Shown here one piece after another: positions 6,635 through 41,654 of a stretch of 64,000 bases of DNA. This DNA is from Clostridia bacterium (GTDB taxonomy: Bacteria; Bacillota; Clostridia; TANB77; CAG-508). The DNA is taken from the NCBI GenBank assembly GCA_022797215.1, contig JAAWKD010000001.1, positions 15,362-79,361 of the forward strand. The letters are read 5' to 3'. The translations under genes were made by a program, and so were the position numbers. A model generated the notes under the pieces. The model ran no database searches and had not been told where the DNA came from. It saw nothing but the letters and a program-made list of their open reading frames with translations. Position 1 is the first letter of the stretch. Each line of letters begins with the position of its first letter.

Positions 6635-8560
6635 TTACTTCTTCACAAAAACATTAAACCAATAAGAACTTTCATTTGTTTCATTAGGAATTGTTATATT
6701 ATTGTAGCCATTCCAATCATTCGTAATTGCATAACATTGTGCATAAAGGAATGTATAACCATTAGGAATTGTTATACCCAAACTTGATAAATTACTTGCA
6801 TCTTTAAAATCAATTTTAGTTCCAAGTGCTAACTTTAGTTGCTGACTAGTAATCATAGAACCCCCTTCTAGATAAAAGGCAAATGTTACAGGAATCGTCC
6901 TTACTTTTTCAACTATTTGCCCTTTGTATCCTTCAGTAGCATCTTTTGAAAAAGCTTGTCTTATTTTTATTCCTTCTTTGGCAACTGAATTTTCAATCTT
7001 TACTTTTCCTACACAATTTGCCAACAAATCATTATCCCACATGTTTGGATTTGCAAATTGTACAGCATAGTTTGACAATTTCTCATCAGAAATCTTCAAG
7101 TAAATCTTCCATTCTCCGCCTTCTATCTCACTTGGTACATAGAAATAAAAATTAACATTGTTTTTTTCTCCACCTTTAATATCATTCGCATTGATATTTA
7201 ATGTAGTTTCATAATATTCACGTTCTTTTCTTAAAATAACAGATACTTTTTGCGTTTTCACTATATTTCCAAATCCTACATTTTCTATTTCAATACTAAC
7301 ACCACAAATATCTCCTTTTTCTACAGAAGATGAAATTTTAGAATTTCTTACCACCATTCTATATCCCAAATGATCTGTTATATATTTATAAGTCGTCTGC
7401 CCATTATATTCTGAATCTGAAGATGTATAATATTGATTTTTCCACTTATTATTTATTACATTTAAATTAAATTGACTATTTAAATATGTAGTATGTGTTT
7501 TTGGCATTTCTACTAAGGCAAAACTACTATCATTATATTGTTCATCATTTGCTTCTCCAGACTTTGTAACTTCTCCACCATATAATGTATACTTTCCTTG
7601 AGTTTGCATCCAATTTACAAAATCATTTCTACTAATTCCATTATCAAAAGTTCCTAAATCTGTTAAACTTCCTAAATATCCGTCATTAAATACCCCTAAT
7701 CTGTGTTGGGAATCATTTAATTCTCCTACTACCAATTTAAAAAAGTATGGTTTTCTTACATTTATTTTCATCTCATTAGGGGTATTTTCTAATAATGTTT
7801 CTATTAAAGTTTTATAATAACTATCTGCTTGATATTTTCCCGCAGTATGCATCTCACCCCAAGGTCCTAAAAATCCTGCTTCTATAGTTGATATAATGTC
7901 TTTATTTGTATTAAAGAAAGGTGACAGTTGCCTAATATGATTTTTTATTGTTTCAAATGATTTTGGCTCTCGACCTGTATTCCCATCGAAATCGTAGGCA
8001 AATCTTATGATGACATTTAACCTATTCTTTCTAATAGTATCTACCATAGTATTTAATGAAGAAATCTGTGTTGAGGTAATGTCTTTATCAATTCCATCTG
8101 CATTTACATTTCCAGAAAGTTGTCCTAAATTAACTCTTAAATGTATTATTTGTATATTTTCTTTTATAGCTTCAGAGCATTGTGTTTGTATGTCGGCATT
8201 ACTACCTAATAGCACTGTAAAAGGCCTGTACCAACCTCTGTCTGGGTTCATAATGGTAGCAATGCTATCTTGAGAACTAAGCTCTTGTTTTACCATTCTT
8301 TGGTCTATTTCCGAAGTGTCATACTCATCTGGTAGAGTTTCTCCACCGCCGATATAATTTTCTGAAAATATTTGGTTTAGCATTTCATCTTCATCTTTTG
8401 TCGCTTTATTATGCTTATCTGCGGCTTCCTTTGCTTTTGCCAATAATCCATTTTCTCCTACTATCATGCTTATTGACACTCCTGCTAATATCAAAAGTAT
8501 CACAATAGTTATAACTAATGCTACTAATGTAATACCTTTTTCCTTGTCATTTTTCATCAT
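6635..8560 (-). CDS. Prepilin-like N-terminal segment fused to a DUF4874/DUF4832-like (glycoside-hydrolase-like) domain
   Basis: KGITLVALVITIVILLILAGV resembles a class-III (prepilin) signal but lacks Glu+5. DRGWYRP and GFLGPWGEMH recall DUF4874/DUF4832, from memory only. Confidence 0.55.
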   Translation of the reverse strand: MMKNDKEKGITLVALVITIVILLILAGVSISMIVGENGLLAKAKEAADKHNKATKDEDEMLNQIFSENYIGGGETLPDEYDTSEIDQRMVKQELSSQDSIATIMNPDRGWYRPFTVLLGSNADIQTQCSEAIKENIQIIHLRVNLGQLSGNVNADGIDKDITSTQISSLNTMVDTIRKNRLNVIIRFAYDFDGNTGREPKSFETIKNHIRQLSPFFNTNKDIISTIEAGFLGPWGEMHTAGKYQADSYYKTLIETLLENTPNEMKINVRKPYFFKLVVGELNDSQHRLGVFNDGYLGSLTDLGTFDNGISRNDFVNWMQTQGKYTLYGGEVTKSGEANDEQYNDSSFALVEMPKTHTTYLNSQFNLNVINNKWKNQYYTSSDSEYNGQTTYKYITDHLGYRMVVRNSKISSSVEKGDICGVSIEIENVGFGNIVKTQKVSVILRKEREYYETTLNINANDIKGGEKNNVNFYFYVPSEIEGGEWKIYLKISDEKLSNYAVQFANPNMWDNDLLANCVGKVKIENSVAKEGIKIRQAFSKDATEGYKGQIVEKVRTIPVTFAFYLEGGSMITSQQLKLALGTKIDFKDASNLSSLGITIPNGYTFLYAQCYAITNDWNGYNNITIPNETNESSYWFNVFVKK

Positions 8561-34314: not shown

Positions 34315-36939
34315 TTATCTTGGCTTCTTAATTGCTGCTTGAGCTGCTGCTAATCTTGCGATTGGAACTCTAAATGGTGAACATGATACATAAGTCAAAC
34401 CAATATTATGGCAGAACTCAACTGTTGGTGGGTTTCCACCATGCTCTCCACAAATTCCTAAATGAATATCAGGTCTTGTAGCTTTTCCCATGTCTACAGC
34501 CATTTTTACTAATTTTCCAACACCAGTTTGGTCTAATTTAGCAAATGGATCTGTTTCATAGATTTTCTTTTCATAGTAAGAACCTAAGAATTTTCCTGCA
34601 TCATCACGACTAAATCCAAATGTCATTTGTGTTAAATCATTTGTACCAAATGAGAAGAATTCAGCTTCTTTTGCAATTTCATCAGCTGTTAATGCTGCTC
34701 TAGGAATTTCAATCATAGTTCCTACTTCATATTTTAAAGATACACCAGCATTTGCAATTTCTTCATCTGCTGCCTTTACAATAATGTCTTTTACATATTT
34801 TAATTCTTTCAATTCACCAACTAATGGAACCATAATTTCAGGAACAACATTCATTCCTTCTTTATTTACATTAATAGCTGCTCTAATAATTGCTCTTGTT
34901 TGCATTGCTCCAATTTCTGGGTAGGTAACATCTAGACGGCATCCTCTGTGTCCCATCATTGGATTGAATTCGTGTAAGCTTACTACTACATCTTTTAATT
35001 CTTGGAAAGTCATTCCCATTTCTTTTGCTAATGTTGTTATTTCTTCGTCTGTATGTGGTAAGAACTCATGTAGTGGTGGATCTAATAGACGAATCGTTAC
35101 TGGATAACCTTTCATAGTTTTAAATAATCCTTCAAAGTCACCTTGTTGCATTGGAAGAATTTTAGCTAGAGCTTTTTCTCTTTGTTCTGCTGTTTTAGAA
35201 ACAATCATTTCACGAATAGCCGCAATTCTTTCTGGAGCAAAGAACATATGCTCTGTACGACATAATCCAATACCTTGTGCACCAAAGTTGTATGCAACTT
35301 CTGCATCTTTTGGAGTATCAGCATTTGTTCTAACTTCCATTTGACGATACTCATCAGCCCAGCCCATTAATTTTGCAAAATCTCCTGATACTTGAGCTTC
35401 TACTGTATCAATCTTTTCACCATATACATTTCCTGTTGAACCATCTAATGAAATATAATCACCTTCATGATATACATTTCCTTGTGGATCTTTAAAGTTT
35501 CCTGCCTCTTCATTTACAACTAATTCTCCACAACCAGCTACACAGCATGTTCCCATACCACGTGCAACAACGGCTGCATGTGATGTCATACCACCACGAA
35601 CTGTTAGGATACCGTGGCATACATTCATTCCATCAATATCTTCTGGAGATGTCTCAAGTCTTACTAAGATTAAATCTTTATCTCCTTTTTCAAACAATTC
35701 TACTGCTCTATCAGCTGTAAATACAACTTTACCTGTTGCAGCACCTGGTGAAGCAGCTAGTCCTTTTGCAACTGGCTTAGCAGCTTTTAATTTTGCTTGA
35801 TCAAAGTTTGGATGTAATAATTGATCTAATTGATTTGGTTCCACTCTTAAAACAGCTTCTTTTTCTGTAATCATTCCTTCATTTACTAATTCTACTGCTA
35901 TTCTAAGTGCAGCATTTGCAGTTCTTTTACCATTTCTTGTTTGTAAGAAGAATAGTTTTCCTCTTTCAATAGTAAATTCCATATCTTGCATATCTTTATA
36001 ATGATCTTCTAATAGATTAGCATATTTTACGAAATCTGCATAGGCTGCAGGATTTGTTTGCTCTAATGTAGCAATTGGTTGTGGTGTTCTAATACCTGCA
36101 ACAACATCTTCACCTTGTGCATTCATTAAATATTCACCAAATAATGCTTTTTCTCCAGTTGCTGGGTTACGTGTAAATGCAACACCAGTTCCGCAATCGT
36201 CTCCCATATTTCCGAAGACCATTTCTTGAACGTTAACGGCTGTTCCCCAACTTCCTGGGATATCATTTAATCTTCTATATGTAATAGCTCTTGGATTATT
36301 CCATGAACGGAATACTGCCTTTACAGCTTCTTTTAATTGTTCTGTTGGATTACTTGGAAATTCACTTCCATGTTCTTTTAAGTAGATTCCTTTGAAGATT
36401 GCAACTAATTCTTTTAAATCTGCTGCTGTCAATTCTGTATCTTGTTTTACGCCTCTTTTTTCTTTCATAGCGTCAATTTCTTTTTCAAATAGTGGCTTTG
36501 GTATTTCCATAACAACATCACTAAACATTTGAATAAATCTTCTATAACTATCATAAGCAAATCTTTCATTTTTTTGTGCCATGCTTGCTGCAACTTCTTC
36601 ATTTAAACCTAAGTTTAAGATAGTGTCCATCATACCTGGCATTGAAGCTCTTGCTCCTGAACGTACTGATACTAATAATGGGTTTTCTACATCTCCGAAT
36701 TTTTTGCCTGTAATCTCTTCTAATTTTGAAAGAGCAGCAAAAATTTCATCTTCGATTTCTTTTGCGATTTTTTCTCCATCTTCATAATATCTTGTGCAAG
36801 CCTCTGTTGTTACTGTGAAACCTTGTGGAATTGGTAAACCTAAATTAGTCATTTCTGCAAGGTTTGCTCCTTTTCCTCCTAAAAGTTCACGCATGTTTGC
36901 GTTTCCTTCTTTGAATAAGTAAACATACTTTTGACTCAT
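34315..36939 (-). CDS. ppdK: Pyruvate, phosphate dikinase
   Basis: 874 aa. N-terminus GGKGANLAEM, phospho-His region GGMTSHAAVVARG, PEP-utiliser C-terminus GICGE. Confidence 0.97.
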   Translation of the reverse strand: MSQKYVYLFKEGNANMRELLGGKGANLAEMTNLGLPIPQGFTVTTEACTRYYEDGEKIAKEIEDEIFAALSKLEEITGKKFGDVENPLLVSVRSGARASMPGMMDTILNLGLNEEVAASMAQKNERFAYDSYRRFIQMFSDVVMEIPKPLFEKEIDAMKEKRGVKQDTELTAADLKELVAIFKGIYLKEHGSEFPSNPTEQLKEAVKAVFRSWNNPRAITYRRLNDIPGSWGTAVNVQEMVFGNMGDDCGTGVAFTRNPATGEKALFGEYLMNAQGEDVVAGIRTPQPIATLEQTNPAAYADFVKYANLLEDHYKDMQDMEFTIERGKLFFLQTRNGKRTANAALRIAVELVNEGMITEKEAVLRVEPNQLDQLLHPNFDQAKLKAAKPVAKGLAASPGAATGKVVFTADRAVELFEKGDKDLILVRLETSPEDIDGMNVCHGILTVRGGMTSHAAVVARGMGTCCVAGCGELVVNEEAGNFKDPQGNVYHEGDYISLDGSTGNVYGEKIDTVEAQVSGDFAKLMGWADEYRQMEVRTNADTPKDAEVAYNFGAQGIGLCRTEHMFFAPERIAAIREMIVSKTAEQREKALAKILPMQQGDFEGLFKTMKGYPVTIRLLDPPLHEFLPHTDEEITTLAKEMGMTFQELKDVVVSLHEFNPMMGHRGCRLDVTYPEIGAMQTRAIIRAAINVNKEGMNVVPEIMVPLVGELKELKYVKDIIVKAADEEIANAGVSLKYEVGTMIEIPRAALTADEIAKEAEFFSFGTNDLTQMTFGFSRDDAGKFLGSYYEKKIYETDPFAKLDQTGVGKLVKMAVDMGKATRPDIHLGICGEHGGNPPTVEFCHNIGLTYVSCSPFRVPIARLAAAQAAIKKPR

Positions 36940-37087
36940 AAAGAACCTCCTTATAATATTGTTATATTATTTTAAATAATATACATTTTGTTTCCCGAGT
37001 AAATTCTACCCTAAAACTGACCCTATTATATCGATAAACCCTAAAAAAGTAAAGTACTTTTTGAAATTTTAAGGACATAAGAAAAGC

Positions 37088-37285
37088 AAAAAAAGCGGTA
37101 GGCTGTAATTATATAACCTACCACTTGATTACCTTTTCTGCTTCACCTTTTTCCCACTCGGGAGTTTCTACATTTCTGGCTCCTTTCGGAGCCTACAGAA
37201 AACCTGAGGTATACCTTTTACTTCGGGGCGTCCGCATTGCGAACATTCCTCCTTTTTAGAATTACTAGGACGATTGCCTAGCACA
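37088..37285 (-). ncRNA. Candidate stand-alone structured sRNA (~200 nt), family not identified
   Basis: Bounded by a TTGACA-17-TACAAT promoter and the terminator GGTAGG-N14-CCTACC+U7. Internal hairpins CTAGG/CCTAG, GUUCGC/GCGGAC and GGCUCC-GAAA-GGAGCC. No convincing ORF. Confidence 0.55.
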
Positions 37286-37291
37286 ATTATT

Positions 37292-37320
37292 ATTGTAACT
37301 CCATATTATGTAAATGTCAA
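37292..37320 (-). promoter_or_regulatory. Near-consensus sigma-A promoter of the candidate sRNA
   Basis: Minus strand TTGACA (37320-37315), 17-nt spacer, TACAAT (37297-37292). Confidence 0.65.
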
Positions 37321-37412
37321 TAGCTTTTTGATAATTTTTCCATTTATTTCATAAAAAGTATTTAAGTATGAGACTTTCTTCCTTTAAAAATGCTTTTTTA
37401 ATATGTCAGCTA

Positions 37413-39536
37413 CTATTTACTATGTTTTCCTTTTTTAGGATTATCTTTTACCTTCTTCACTTTATGACTCACTACTTTCTTTTTATTTGGTTCCTTCTTC
37501 CTTTTTTCTCTTGGTGTTTCTAAAATTTCATCTTCAAATAAAAGTCTCACCTTCTGTTCCATTTTGTTAGATCTATCAAAGATCAGAGTAACTTCTTTTT
37601 CAAAGTCAGGGATTCCTTGTTCTTGTACTTGTCTTTGAATTTGTTCTTTTAAGTCTAAATCTAAGAAGAAATCCTCTTCTTCTTTATCCCATTGTTTTTC
37701 TTGTCTATATTCTTTATTATCTTTTTCTTTCGTATTTTCATATTGGGCCGTATCTTCTGCTACCATTAATTCTTGTTGCCCCTCTTCTATTAATTCTGTT
37801 TCATATCTCTGTGTTGTTATGTCTCTTTCTACTTTCTCTGGTATTTCTTCTATCTCTAGTCCATCTGCTGCTAATTCAGGTTCGTCTTGATAAATTCTTA
37901 GTTTTACTAATAGAGGATAAATCTTAGTACCAAATGGTATCATTAGTATGTCTTCTTTTTTTAGTATTTTTCCTAAAAATAATGCTAATACATAGATAAC
38001 TCCTCCACAGATAATAGCAAGTATAGTGCTGATTGACTTTCCTACTACTTCATTAAGCCACATATTAATTAAATAAACAGATCCTCCCATCAAAAGTCCT
38101 GCTGCTATTGGGCTTACTACCATTCTGCCAAATTCAAACTTTAATTTTAGATTTTTCTGAAGTGCAATAATGCAAATTAAAAATACAAATCCTTGAGCTG
38201 CTATAGAACTAATTCCGGAGCCATTAATTCCAATAGATGGGTTACTAATAAGAGTAATATTTAATCCCACTTTTATGAAAACAGATATTATAATAGCAAC
38301 AGCTGGAATATAACTTTTGTTTACTCCATATAATCCTCCATTAATGGTTTGATTCAGTGCAACAAATATCATTGATATAGAACATAAAATCAATACACTT
38401 GCACCATTTGACGCTGTTGGATAAATTAAATTTAGAATTGGTTGGGCTAAGCTAATAAATCCACAGGCACAAGGAATGATAATCAATATAGACGCAAATA
38501 GTGAGAATGTCATTCTTTTTGATGCTGTTTCATAATCTCTTTTTGCCAATGAAGTAGATATTACTGGTACTAATGCAGTAGAAAATGCAATATTAATAGC
38601 AATTGGTAATGCAGTTAATGTATCTACCTTTGACAAAATTCCTGTCATGCTCATCGCAAATGCTTCTAATTCTTCCTTAATCGGATAAATACTTGCAAAA
38701 GCATTTTGAATACATCTACTAACTGTTGTACTATCAATTAGTGGACTAATGATAGAAATAACAGAACTAAAAGTAATTGGTATAGACATTACTAAGATGG
38801 TTTTTAACAACTGACCTGTAGTTTTATTTGCCTCTGGTGATACCTGTCTTCTTTTTACTTTAATTTTTTTTCTTTTGTAGTAAGCGATTAAATAAATAAA
38901 AGTAAGTATAATCGCACAGGTAGTAGATAAATTTCCTCCTGCGGCCATAATATATGGTTCTTTACCAATTAAGGCATATACAAAAGTAATGGACAATACA
39001 CAATTTAAAAACTGCTCTAAGATTTGAGAATAACTTGTTGGTTTCATATCATTCAGTCCAGCAAAATATCCTCTAAAAACTGCTGAAGCTGCAACAAATA
39101 CAACTGCTGGTGCTAGTACTTGCATGACATATTTTGTATCTGGAACATTAAATACCGTTTTTGCAATGCTTTCTGCTCCAAAAAATAAGATAACAGAAAG
39201 TATAAAACCTACAATTGTAAAAAAAGTCATACAAACTTTAAAAATACGTCTAGCCCCTTTATTATCTCCTATTGCTACTCTTTCTGAAACTAGTTTAGAA
39301 ACAACATTTGGAATCCCTATGGAAGATAATGCTAGTAGTAAAGAATATACTTGATACCCTGCTGAATAATATCCAAGCCCCGTATCTCCAAAACCTTCAA
39401 AATTAGTAATAACTAATTTGTAGATAAATCCTAATATTTTTACCATAATTTGTGAAAACATGAGAACAAGGACATTTCCCATAAAGGATGTCCCTCGTCT
39501 TTTTTTCACATTGGTATCTTTCGTTCTTTTTGCCAT
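37413..39536 (-). CDS. MOP-superfamily flippase (MurJ/SpoVB/polysaccharide-biosynthesis type) with ~190-aa charged C-terminal tail
   Basis: About 520 aa with 14 TM helices in the MviN/Wzx pattern (GLGYYSAGYQVYSLLL...), then a K/E-rich soluble tail. Confidence 0.8.
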   Translation of the reverse strand: MAKRTKDTNVKKRRGTSFMGNVLVLMFSQIMVKILGFIYKLVITNFEGFGDTGLGYYSAGYQVYSLLLALSSIGIPNVVSKLVSERVAIGDNKGARRIFKVCMTFFTIVGFILSVILFFGAESIAKTVFNVPDTKYVMQVLAPAVVFVAASAVFRGYFAGLNDMKPTSYSQILEQFLNCVLSITFVYALIGKEPYIMAAGGNLSTTCAIILTFIYLIAYYKRKKIKVKRRQVSPEANKTTGQLLKTILVMSIPITFSSVISIISPLIDSTTVSRCIQNAFASIYPIKEELEAFAMSMTGILSKVDTLTALPIAINIAFSTALVPVISTSLAKRDYETASKRMTFSLFASILIIIPCACGFISLAQPILNLIYPTASNGASVLILCSISMIFVALNQTINGGLYGVNKSYIPAVAIIISVFIKVGLNITLISNPSIGINGSGISSIAAQGFVFLICIIALQKNLKLKFEFGRMVVSPIAAGLLMGGSVYLINMWLNEVVGKSISTILAIICGGVIYVLALFLGKILKKEDILMIPFGTKIYPLLVKLRIYQDEPELAADGLEIEEIPEKVERDITTQRYETELIEEGQQELMVAEDTAQYENTKEKDNKEYRQEKQWDKEEEDFFLDLDLKEQIQRQVQEQGIPDFEKEVTLIFDRSNKMEQKVRLLFEDEILETPREKRKKEPNKKKVVSHKVKKVKDNPKKGKHSK

Positions 39537-39646: not shown

Positions 39647-41035
39647 TTAAAATTTCACTTTTTCTGCAATCCAAGCTTGTAGTTCATCGATCTTCACTCT
39701 TACTTGTTCCATAGTATCTCTATCACGAACAGTTACTGTTTCATCTTCTAAAGTATCAAAATCAACAGTAACACAATAAGGAGTACCAATTTCATCTTCT
39801 CTTCTATAACGTTTTCCTATACTTCCTGCTTCATCATAATCACACATAAATTCTTTAGATAACTTATCATATACTTCTTCTGCTTTTTCACTTAATTTTT
39901 TAGAAAGTGGAAGCACTGCAACTTTATATGGTGCTAAGGCTGGATGTAAATGTAATACAATTCTTGTATCTCCTTCTGCAATTTCTTGTTCTTCATAACC
40001 ATTGCACATCATAGCTAAAAAGATTCTATCTACTCCAACTGCTGGCTCTACACAGTATGGTACATATCTCTCTCCTGTTTCTGGATCCAAATATGTTAAA
40101 TCCTCTTTTGAAGCTTCCATATGTCTTGACAAATCATAATCTGTTCTATCTGCAATTCCCCATAGCTCTCCCCAACCAAAAGGGAATAGAAATTCAATGT
40201 CTGTTGTTCCTTTACTATAGAAAGATAGTTCTTCTTTAGTATGTTCTCTTAATCTCAAGTTTTCTGGCTTTATTCCTAAATTAATAAGCCATTCTTTGCA
40301 GAAATTCTTCCAATACTCATACCATTCTAGATCTGTTCCTGGTTTACAGAAAAATTCCAACTCCATCTGTTCAAACTCTCTCGTTCTAAAAATGAAATTT
40401 CCTGGTGTAATTTCATTTCTAAAAGAACGCCCCATTTGACCAATTCCCATTGGCATTTTACTTCTAGTAGTTCTTAATACATTTTTAAAATCAACAAACA
40501 TTCCTTGTGCTGTTTCTGGTCTTAAGTATACTGTAGAAGTAGCGTCTTCTGTTACTCCCATAAAAGTTTTAAACATTAAATTGAACTTTCTAATATCTGT
40601 AAACTCTAATTTGCCACAATTAGGACAAGCTATTTTATTTTCTTTGATATACTCTACCAATTGTTCATTTGTCCAACCATCTAGTCCAGAAATGTCTTTT
40701 CCGTTTTGAAATCCCCATTCTTCAATTAGTTTGTCTGCCCTATGTCTTGTTTTACAAGATTTACAGTCAATAAGTGGGTCTGAGAAACCTCCTACATGTC
40801 CTGTAGTTACCCAAACTTGTGGATTCATCATAATAGCTGCATCAATTCCTACATTATACTTATTTTGCGCAATAAATTTTTTCCACCAAGCCTCTTTAAT
40901 ATTTTTTTTCAGTTCAGCTCCTATTGGACCATAGTCCCAAGAATTTGCTAAACCTCCATAAATTTCTGAGCCAGGATATACAAATCCTCTCGCTTTGCAT
41001 AGATTTACTAATTTTTCCATTGTTAAATCTGACAT
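39647..41035 (-). CDS. glyQS: Glycine--tRNA ligase (homodimeric class II type)
   Basis: 462 aa. [48 protein letters not shown]. Confidence 0.96.
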
Positions 41036-41061: not shown

Positions 41062-41285
41062 CTAGAAACAAAAAACTTTCATCTCTAGCTTTTTAAATAT
41101 AAGCTAGGGACGAAAGTTTATTTTCCGCGGTTCCACCCTATTTGATTAACACCTTAGGCTAATCCTCTTTCTCTTTTTATGCTCCAAAGCTCCCCATTTG
41201 GTAATTAAGGTTGGCTTTCACCTTTTCCAACTCTCTTTTTCTTAATTTTTCCAAACTTTTTCTTTTTCATCGCAATTTTTAATTG
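41062..41285 (-). promoter_or_regulatory. T-box riboswitch leader (glycine specifier, GGN) of glyQS
   Basis: The minus strand carries UUGCGAUGA (stem I K-turn), AGAGAG...GGUGAAAG, the T-box AAUAGGGUGGAACCGCGG (41125-41143) and a terminator at 41076-41117 plus a U-run. Confidence 0.88.
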
Positions 41286-41291
41286 TTTACT

Positions 41292-41320
41292 ATTCTACTC
41301 TTCTTTTTTCATTTTGTCAA
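41292..41320 (-). promoter_or_regulatory. Sigma-A promoter of the glyQS leader
   Basis: Minus strand TTGACA-17 nt-TAGAAT. Confidence 0.65.
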
Positions 41321-41331
41321 CCATTTATTAC

Positions 41332-41340
41332 TTATCCACA
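41332..41340 (+). promoter_or_regulatory. Perfect DnaA box TTATCCACA
   Basis: Exact 9-mer, 12 nt beyond the glyQS -35. A one-mismatch box TTATCCTCA lies at 41352-41360. Confidence 0.6.
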
Positions 41341-41603: not shown

Positions 41604-41612
41604 TGTGGATAA
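41604..41612 (-). promoter_or_regulatory. Perfect DnaA box (TGTGGATAA on plus strand)
   Basis: Exact 9-mer. Flanked by near-boxes TGTGGAAAT (41595) and TGTGAACAA (41616). Confidence 0.6.
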
Positions 41613-41645: not shown

Positions 41646-41654
41646 TGTGGATAA
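41646..41654 (-). promoter_or_regulatory. Perfect DnaA box (TGTGGATAA on plus strand)
   Basis: Exact 9-mer. Confidence 0.6.

Follow-up and report, generated by a model that had tools for sequence, protein, structure and literature searches.

The 64-kb window analysed here (the whole stretch of Clostridia DNA, 64,000 nucleotides, to which all positions refer unless a locus is named) contains, between a gene for a MurJ-like protein and the pyruvate phosphate dikinase gene ppdK, a short transcription unit which is best read, with a probability of roughly 0.6, as a stand-alone, lineage-restricted noncoding RNA (ncRNA) gene of uncultured mouse-gut Clostridia, present here as a truncated allele of an RNA of about 446 nt. 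This is a young, lineage-specific small RNA (sRNA) rather than a conserved regulator; the RNA is unclassified, yet its kind is ordinary, that of a lineage-specific bacterial sRNA gene, and it represents no new kind of system. An earlier note, made from the letters of the sequence alone, had proposed at this site an independently transcribed structured RNA of about 200 nt, and the promoter, the four hairpins and the terminator which it described all lie where it had placed them on the minus strand (Table 1).

The minus strand is the orientation of all the RNA features, and the strand of the transcript was deduced from the way in which its promoter and terminator face. As is expected of an independent sRNA gene, the unit has a promoter of its own, with 11 of 12 consensus positions, and an intrinsic terminator of its own (-16.8 kcal/mol, followed by U7). 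Promoter matches of the grade of TTGACA-17-TACAAT are found only 8 times on the minus strand within the 64-kb window, the promoter of the RNA being among them. The GC content is 0.43-0.50 in the RNA body versus 0.21-0.31 in the flanks, and the 199-nt RNA folds with a z-score of -4.03, none of 200 dinucleotide shuffles being equally stable; when the terminator is left out, the remaining body still has z = -2.88, a stability reached by 1 of 200 shuffles. The GGCUCC-GAAA-GGAGCC hairpin is retained in the minimum free energy (MFE) folds of both the short form and the longer form described below, and the loop of the UCCC-GAGU-GGGA hairpin carries a G to A change in one strain with the longer form (L041), the change being confined to the loop.

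Table 1. Positions of the RNA, its neighbours and the traces of an earlier occupant of the site (window coordinates unless a locus is named)
Feature	Position	Strand	Remarks
Sigma-70-type promoter of the RNA, TTGACA-17 nt-TACAAT	37292-37320	-	Matches 11/12 positions
A/T-rich AAAAATTATCAAAAAG tract preceding the RNA promoter	37336-37321	-	
Inferred transcription start, 5-9 nt past the -10 box	37283-37287	-	RNA contig 5' ends
5'-terminal stem-loop CUAGG-CAAUCGU-CCUAG, then UAAUUCUAAAAAGG	37265-37281	-	Sequence and fold
Hairpin 2, GUUCGC-AAU-GCGGAC	37244-37230	-	Sequence and fold
GNRA-capped hairpin GGCUCC-GAAA-GGAGCC	37178-37193	-	Sequence and fold
Hairpin UCCC-GAGU-GGGA	37152-37163	-	Sequence and fold
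Intrinsic terminator GUGGUAGGUUAUAUAAUUACAGCCUACCGC (GUGGUAGG..CCUACCGC) and U7	37088-37124	-	dG -16.8 kcal/mol
Open reading frame MFAMRTPRSKRYTSGFL, 17 codons (14 from the second AUG at 37237)	37246-37193	-	Sole sense open reading frame of the window RNA
Shine-Dalgarno-like AAAGGAGG	37255-37248	-	10 nt ahead of the second AUG
Junction	37125-37126	-	Window lacks 246 nt of the long allele (L057:5913-6158); 1 nt microhomology
ppdK promoter TTTACT-17-TATAAT	37025-37053	-	35 nt beyond the RNA terminator
Pyruvate phosphate dikinase gene (ppdK)	34315-36939		
MurJ/Polysacc_synt protein, 707 aa	37413-39536		
Degenerate B-promoter remnant (-35 box and spacer), CTGACATATTAAAAAAGCA versus TTGACATGTTGAAAAAAGA in L001	37391-37409	-	
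B terminator tail (as in L001/L002), TTTTCTTATG	37076-37085	-	3' edge of the replaced segment
B RNA	L001:6164-6425, L002:6164-6425, L023:3087-3344, L030:5729-5973, L032:~6755-7050		Just upstream of the ppdK promoter

The evidence for expression consists of metatranscriptome contigs, which are unstranded and whose depth is a poor measure of expression. RNA contigs from eight runs have their 5' ends at 37266-37283, just past the -10 box, and none of them enters the promoter or the MurJ-like gene. Contigs of the long form, found in seven RNA runs from several studies, span 37126 up to 37271-37283 and stop there, with depths of 87, 215 and 275 in three of the runs (X28, X34 and X35) and about 9-12 in the others, and in these runs the depth over the RNA promoter and the MurJ-like gene is zero; the X35 contig has 4 extra unaligned nt at its 5' end. 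Pieces of ppdK in the same RNA runs have depths of roughly 8-28, the depth of the long RNA contig being 10-25 times that of the ppdK mRNA. The short form appears in the X25 metatranscriptome as a contig which is identical to the window over 37082-37266, crosses the junction at 37126 and ends at 37082, six bases past the U-tract. No RNA contig joins the RNA to the MurJ-like gene or to ppdK. At the level of these unstranded contigs, therefore, the RNA is a discrete transcript with matching ends that is separate from the neighbouring mRNAs, and the independent transcription unit of the earlier note, which had suggested RNA-seq as a check, is borne out by the contig start, by the end of the X25 contig at the terminator and by the separation from both neighbours.

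The same contigs bear on the possibility that the RNA is not a primary transcript but a processed 3' untranslated region (UTR) of the MurJ-like mRNA. The MurJ-like gene lacks a terminator ahead of the one at 37124-37088, so its transcripts must cross the region, and because of this the terminator of the window RNA probably also stops read-through from that gene; a near-consensus promoter lies directly upstream of the RNA 5' end, however, and contigs as deep as 275 end at 37283, the MurJ-like gene having no coverage at all, so that an origin by processing is extremely improbable.

The unit of about 200 nt that the earlier note proposed is not the native RNA but an allele that lacks 246 internal nucleotides of an RNA of about 446 nt. 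The long allele occupies the same locus in two conspecific strains (L041 and L057, from two Joint Genome Institute (JGI) metagenomes) and in a DNA contig of X12; the loci were reached by using the C-terminal part of the MurJ-like protein against short metagenome contigs, and then through cluster members. The long-allele RNA has an identical start and ends in a terminator which has diverged but keeps the GGUAGG/CCUACC core, and the window allele retains its first ~160 nt and a terminator. The part absent from the window contains a long-range helix of 10 bp, a GC hairpin and repeats of the motifs AAGCAAGACCC and GAGAGCAAA, and all copies of the AGCAA(G/A)ACCC-type repeat (the AGCAAGACCC repeats) fall within it. 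All seven long-form RNA contigs part from the window at 37126 and run on for up to 246 unlike nt, and it is from these loose contig ends that the RNA support for the long-specific part comes, indirectly.

That the short allele is no artefact is shown by four independent assemblies (L038-L040 and L043), in which its sequence is the same, and by five DNA runs in which it is present in full. A simple deletion was considered as its origin and rejected, because the sequence downstream of the junction also differs, by ~5%, which makes the allele a recombinant. The identity of the window to L057 is 99.4% over 876 nt upstream of 37126 and 94.8-95.5% downstream of it, where the window is nearer to the sister species represented by L001 (96.5%); with this shift in identity at 37126, a recombination breakpoint coincides with the junction. 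The 5' 160 nt are 99% conserved, but the adjacent MurJ-like gene is equally conserved, so this figure is uninformative either way.

The remaining property expected of an independent sRNA gene is a lack of protein-coding capacity, and the longest sense open reading frame (ORF) of the window RNA has 17 codons, in agreement with the earlier note, which had seen only an ORF of 14-19 codons; no ORF of the RNA is a meaningful one. The long form has one GTG-started ORF of 38 codons, and no ATG-started sense ORF of at least 20 codons. Among 5.8 billion recorded proteins none matches the shared 5' ~195 nt in any frame, a chimeric query composed of all six-frame pieces, aimed at spurious ORF calls over the RNA, returned no protein match, and an antisense ORF of 44 aa is likewise not on record. 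The alternative that the transcript is the mRNA of a micropeptide of 14-17 residues, MFAMRTPRSKRYTSGFL, translated from the Shine-Dalgarno (SD) sequence AAAGGAGG, can draw on the perfect SD 10 nt before the second AUG, on the intactness of the ORF in both the long and the short alleles, and on the fact that the sole natural single-nucleotide polymorphism (SNP) within the ORF, at 37223, is synonymous in its frame, although a single SNP is too little to argue coding. Very little credence can be given to this alternative, since the SD and both AUGs lie within hairpin 2 and are sequestered in this stable hairpin in every predicted fold, the ORF covers 54 of ~446 nt, the peptide shows no recognisable character, hydrophobic or otherwise, and the 5.8 billion recorded proteins hold nothing that matches it. 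It may be added that the source annotation of both long-allele strains, from two independent JGI metagenomes, lists a 402-nt 'gene' with a 17-residue product (L041:1152-1553 and L057:5695-6096), which begins 71 nt past the MurJ-like stop codon and covers most of the long RNA; read in frame from its start, with TGA taken as sense, it gives the 17-aa product, and it is probably an annotation artefact.

The RNA was compared with known families by running cmscan against all 4,227 families of Rfam 15, first at the gathering thresholds and then at E <= 10. At the gathering thresholds the only Rfam match in the whole window is a tRNA, at E <= 10 the region 36900-37450 gives only chance-level matches (the best has 22 bits against a threshold of 50), the long form (L041) gives nothing relevant at E <= 1, and ARAGORN finds no tmRNA. 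As far as the models reach, 6S RNA, the raiA motif, T-boxes, riboswitches, the signal recognition particle (SRP) RNA, RNase P RNA and tmRNA are excluded. The failure of the earlier note to recognise any of the motif families it listed is thereby confirmed, while of the options that it had kept, 6S RNA and the raiA motif find no Rfam match, and of its novel sRNA or leader the sRNA stands and the leader is unlikely, a ppdK promoter being interposed between the RNA and the gene. RNase P RNA or tmRNA had also been suspected for the longer RNA from the contig size and a GAGGAA-like motif; both were rejected, as the long form matches neither in Rfam or ARAGORN, and for RNase P RNA, in addition, P1/P2 would not fit ahead of the first hairpin and P4 lacks a partner. 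Mimicry of ribosomal RNA (rRNA) by the long-form sequence CGUGGAGAGCAAACA, which resembles 16S positions 770-784, was rejected as not significant, since 13 of 200 shuffles do equally well.

Two of these families are instructive for comparison. Like the raiA motif RNA (ModT, RF03072), an abundant structured ncRNA of Clostridia of about 200 nt with its own promoter and terminator, the window RNA has no obvious tie to the downstream gene; unlike it, the window RNA has no match to RF03072 even at E <= 10 and is limited to one species-level lineage, the raiA motif being reported to be conserved in more than 2,500 species (PMC11706538). With 6S RNA (RF00013) it shares the character of a very abundant, stable small RNA made from a housekeeping promoter, but Rfam gives no match for it, sister species lack it and it can be deleted, which would not be so of a housekeeping RNA, and its fold consists of local hairpins and a multibranch domain instead of a rod with a central bubble.

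The restriction to one lineage follows from the comparison of related loci. The window DNA occurs in mouse-gut metagenomes, and its closest genomes are metagenome-assembled genomes of uncultured Clostridia, mouse MGBC bins included, with Clostridium sp. CAG:508 more distant. The synteny of the MurJ-like gene and ppdK is kept across 26 loci. A homologue of either allele was found neither at any of 37 related loci, not even at those with 98% identity in PpdK and 90% in the MurJ-like protein, nor in the rest of the window; scans of genome, metagenome and viral collections for exact matches to three words of the RNA, and BLAST of phage and plasmid collections, are likewise negative. Of the sister species whose MurJ-like protein is 85-90% identical, some have an unrelated RNA at this place and the others just an intergenic region of 130 nt, those at 85-86% (L004, L005 and L034) having the ~130-nt region and no cassette. 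Because there is no homologue in the 37 related loci, no covariation can be demonstrated: homologues with compensatory changes, which would mark a conserved structured RNA, are missing, and only ~1% strain variation is available. The earlier note had itself named a lack of conservation and covariation in related genomes as evidence against its candidate, and this is what the relatives show.

The site that follows the MurJ-like gene is hypervariable and is a general insertion hotspot. At L054-L056, where the MurJ-like gene is of the P0018 variant, a 78-aa helix-turn-helix gene and a 567-aa gene with a Big_7 domain occupy the site, with no RNA cassette. Some 300-450 nt upstream of ppdK, L012 and L014 carry a segment of ~140 nt flanked by inverted AAGTATAATAATTGTCTTTT repeats and lying in opposite orientations, and a repeat of ~100 nt is common to L003:6205-6307 and L023:2913-3015, again in opposite orientations; both are MITE-like (resembling miniature inverted-repeat transposable elements) or invertible elements.

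In the closest relatives, L001 and L002 (90% identity in the MurJ-like protein and 98% in PpdK), the site is occupied by an unrelated RNA of ~260 nt, here called B, with its own promoter and terminator. B always adjoins the ppdK promoter, even where another gene intervenes (L032), and consists of its promoter, a 5' hairpin, a closing helix GGAGAG/CUCUCC (GGAAAG/CUUUCC in L001), a GGACCA/UGGUCU helix and the terminator, with an invariant 18-nt loop, AGUAGUGGCGARCGAAAG. Across five B sequences, compensatory changes affect 22 of the 51 pairs predicted, where shuffles give 12.5 +/- 2.3 and slid controls 4-9. B has no match in Rfam and has the appearance of a structured RNA family not yet described. 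The possibility that the window RNA is a diverged B was rejected, as the window contains no nhmmer match to a profile of B and the local alignment of the two RNAs is no better than that of shuffles. The two are alike in their site before the ppdK promoter, in having their own promoter, a 5'-terminal hairpin, a length of ~250 nt and an intrinsic terminator, and in being prone to internal deletion; they differ in that B has an invariant loop and covarying helices, which the window RNA lacks, and in that B is conserved across the family, which the window RNA is not. The deletion derivatives of B, at L003:6128-6205 and in the L013 intergenic region, have the beginning of the 5' hairpin, with the promoter before it, fused nearly straight to the terminator, and parallel the shortened allele of the window.

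The homology of the window to L001 extends to 37394 and restarts at 37084, and at these edges lie a degenerate remnant of the B promoter and the tail of the B terminator (Table 1). The presence of remnants of B on both flanks suggests that the present cassette replaced the body of B.

A separate observation concerns the only invariant block of B, CAAGUAGUGGCGAGCGAAAG, which lies in the loop of a covarying stem (L023:3151-3170, with the equivalent loop in L001, L030 and L032). It equals positions 240-259 of the bacterial 23S rRNA consensus at 18 of 20 positions, in the same local structure, and matches E. coli 23S positions 241-256 at 15 of 16. As a search match the likeness is not significant (4.8 bits, E = 4.9), and the local score is equalled or beaten by 1 of 200 shuffles for L032 and by 4 of 200 for L023; the loop of B may be an rRNA mimic.

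The origin of the 5' end of the window RNA is suggested by its neighbour. The first ~45 transcribed nt are collinear with the ppdK leader of L005 and L004 and with that of the long-allele strain L057, with which they share a CTAGG stem placed 10 nt past the -10 box and, in register with that box, two identical blocks, GTCCTAGTAA and CTAAAAAGG; individual 10-mers do, however, recur within the window by chance. In global alignment with the promoter and leader of ppdK in L005 the 5' end scores z = 5.2, which none of 500 shuffles equals. The 5' stem-loop region is thus a probable copy of a ppdK leader element, as judged from this alignment, and the RNA promoter was perhaps copied from ppdK as well. 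The 5' UTR of ppdK also holds a perfect AT-rich palindrome, TATATTATTTAAAATAATATA (36963-36983, minus strand), which is kept in L001, L004-L006 and L057 and is replaced in more distant relatives by another palindrome of the TTACTTTTTAAGTAA type; it may form an RNA hairpin or act as an operator.

The likeness of the 5' end to the ppdK leader is also one of the points that speak for a different role, in which the RNA would be a cis-acting, riboswitch-like leader or attenuator of ppdK, with conditional read-through of the terminator: the RNA immediately precedes ppdK in the same orientation and ends in a terminator, and the unrelated B is likewise always found just upstream of ppdK (with a gene between in L032). 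A true ppdK leader would have no promoter between its terminator and the gene, but the separate ppdK promoter which the earlier note had noticed does lie there (TTTACT-17-TATAAT), and it is kept, together with a 5' leader hairpin, in 26 of 26 relatives compared, whether or not they have a cassette, the ~130-nt intergenic regions that lack one included. There is no conserved aptamer and no Rfam match to a riboswitch or T-box, and the RNA and ppdK are represented by different contigs. With -16.8 kcal/mol and a U7 tract the terminator is a strong one, and the MFE and centroid folds keep it intact, inspection of the sequence by eye having yielded no convincing antiterminator, only an alternative pairing of 6 bp which exists in the long form alone. 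The attenuator role is in consequence clearly improbable. Base-pairing of the RNA with the ppdK leader, between UCCCGAGU in hairpin 4 and ACUCGGGA, was rejected as well: by our own estimate ~0.3 such 8-mers are expected by chance, and L041 breaks the pairing.

A more serious alternative, unlikely but deserving real weight, is that the transcript is a functionless by-product, in which a strong promoter, possibly a copy of that of ppdK, drives unselected sequence up to a terminator; its abundance would then reflect promoter strength and stabilising hairpins, and the loss of 246 nt would be ordinary decay. This would account for the lack of a homologue in sister species, for the toleration of a large internal deletion that is seen in several samples, for the similar decay of the B RNAs at the site by internal deletion (L003 and L013) and for the hypervariability of the site, and the fold of the long form without the complete terminator hairpin is unremarkable (z = -1.93). 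What it explains poorly is the presence of GC-rich hairpins, one of them GNRA-capped, and a 5' body with z = -2.88, which are unusual for drift in a genome of ~30% GC, as well as the maintenance of the terminator stem in two diverged alleles.

Several further observations count against the interpretation of the unit as an ncRNA gene with a 5' end derived from ppdK. That 246 nt have been lost at no apparent cost is in keeping with an RNA of little or no function, and conservation is limited to ~1% strain variation, so that there is neither covariation nor any sign of selection on the structure. The expression data come from contigs whose lack of strand and poor relation of depth to expression weaken them, and the short allele is confirmed in just one RNA run (X25), at a depth of 3. 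With respect to the 5' end, the comparison with the ppdK leader of L057 itself gives z = 4.8 overall, but its transcribed part alone is matched by 65 of 1000 shuffles; an unrelated promoter of the window, used as a control, scores 18 compared to 17-21, which means that the promoter part of the likeness is not diagnostic; the likeness spans the first ~45 nt, the remaining ~400 nt lying outside it; and the ppdK leader resident in the window is of another type, leaving a decoy role unsupported for the window allele.

Elsewhere in the window, a T-box leader is found at 41103-41279 (minus strand), upstream of a class II aminoacyl-tRNA synthetase gene at 39647-41035 which is probably glycyl; its score of 75.7 bits (E = 1.6e-16) is under the Rfam gathering score of 93, and it was hence missed in the default scan. 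A TTGACA-17-TAGAAT promoter lies near it at 41320. Three perfect DnaA-box 9-mers (TTATCCACA or its complement), at 41332-41340, 41604-41612 and 41646-41654, fall within 320 nt in one intergenic region, and the 64-kb window has no others; the cluster may be an oriC-like or DnaA-regulated region, though the flanking genes run the same way.

If the unit is a lineage-restricted ncRNA gene, its history and action can be sketched as follows. The cassette would have taken the place of B at the site before ppdK, with its 5' stem-loop, and perhaps its promoter, copied from the promoter and leader of ppdK; because of this copying, if copies they are, the RNA would be co-expressed with ppdK and is probably made whenever ppdK is. 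The 5' stem-loop and the terminator would confer stability on the RNA, and any function would be exerted in trans, by base-pairing or by the titration of a factor, with no effect in cis on ppdK. The short allele would be a reduced-function or null version which the bacterium tolerates.

This pattern fits what has been reported for enterobacterial sRNAs, namely recent origin, replacement of an occupant and retention of parental regulation (PMC8825220): most of these sRNAs are evolutionarily recent, an sRNA born from part of a gene keeps the regulon of its parent, and OxyS is a young sRNA derived from a fragment of a peroxidase mRNA (PMC8825220). The window RNA would resemble young sRNAs of the OxyS type in its recent origin, in its displacement of the previous occupant of the locus, and in a 5' end that was seemingly inherited from an adjacent promoter and leader and would hence keep it in that circuit; it differs from them in that the candidate parent is the ppdK promoter and leader only, the coding part being dissimilar, and in that its case is built on a short collinear match.

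A bolder interpretation, which we consider quite unlikely, is that the long RNA belongs to a new class of large, highly abundant ncRNA whose AGCAA(G/A)ACCC-type repeats in the 3' half could bind a protein or pair with targets, with this RNA and B as interchangeable cassettes which, at a hotspot adjoining ppdK, tune central carbon metabolism, and the allele of the window as a natural partial knock-out; were this true, that allele would make the function testable by the comparison of strains.

For the annotation of such genomes the lesson is twofold: the combination of promoter, hairpins and terminator predicted a real transcript, and conservation and allele context were needed in order to recognise the 200-nt unit as truncated and lineage-specific. 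Regardless of function, the locus documents the turnover of sRNA genes, in the form of a cassette swap at a fixed site followed by decay through internal deletion and recombination, and the new RNA probably borrowed the leader of the adjacent gene. If it is functional, the RNA would be among the most abundant transcripts of this uncultured mouse-gut Clostridia lineage while standing outside the described RNA families, and its natural long, short and absent alleles constitute a ready-made genetic series.

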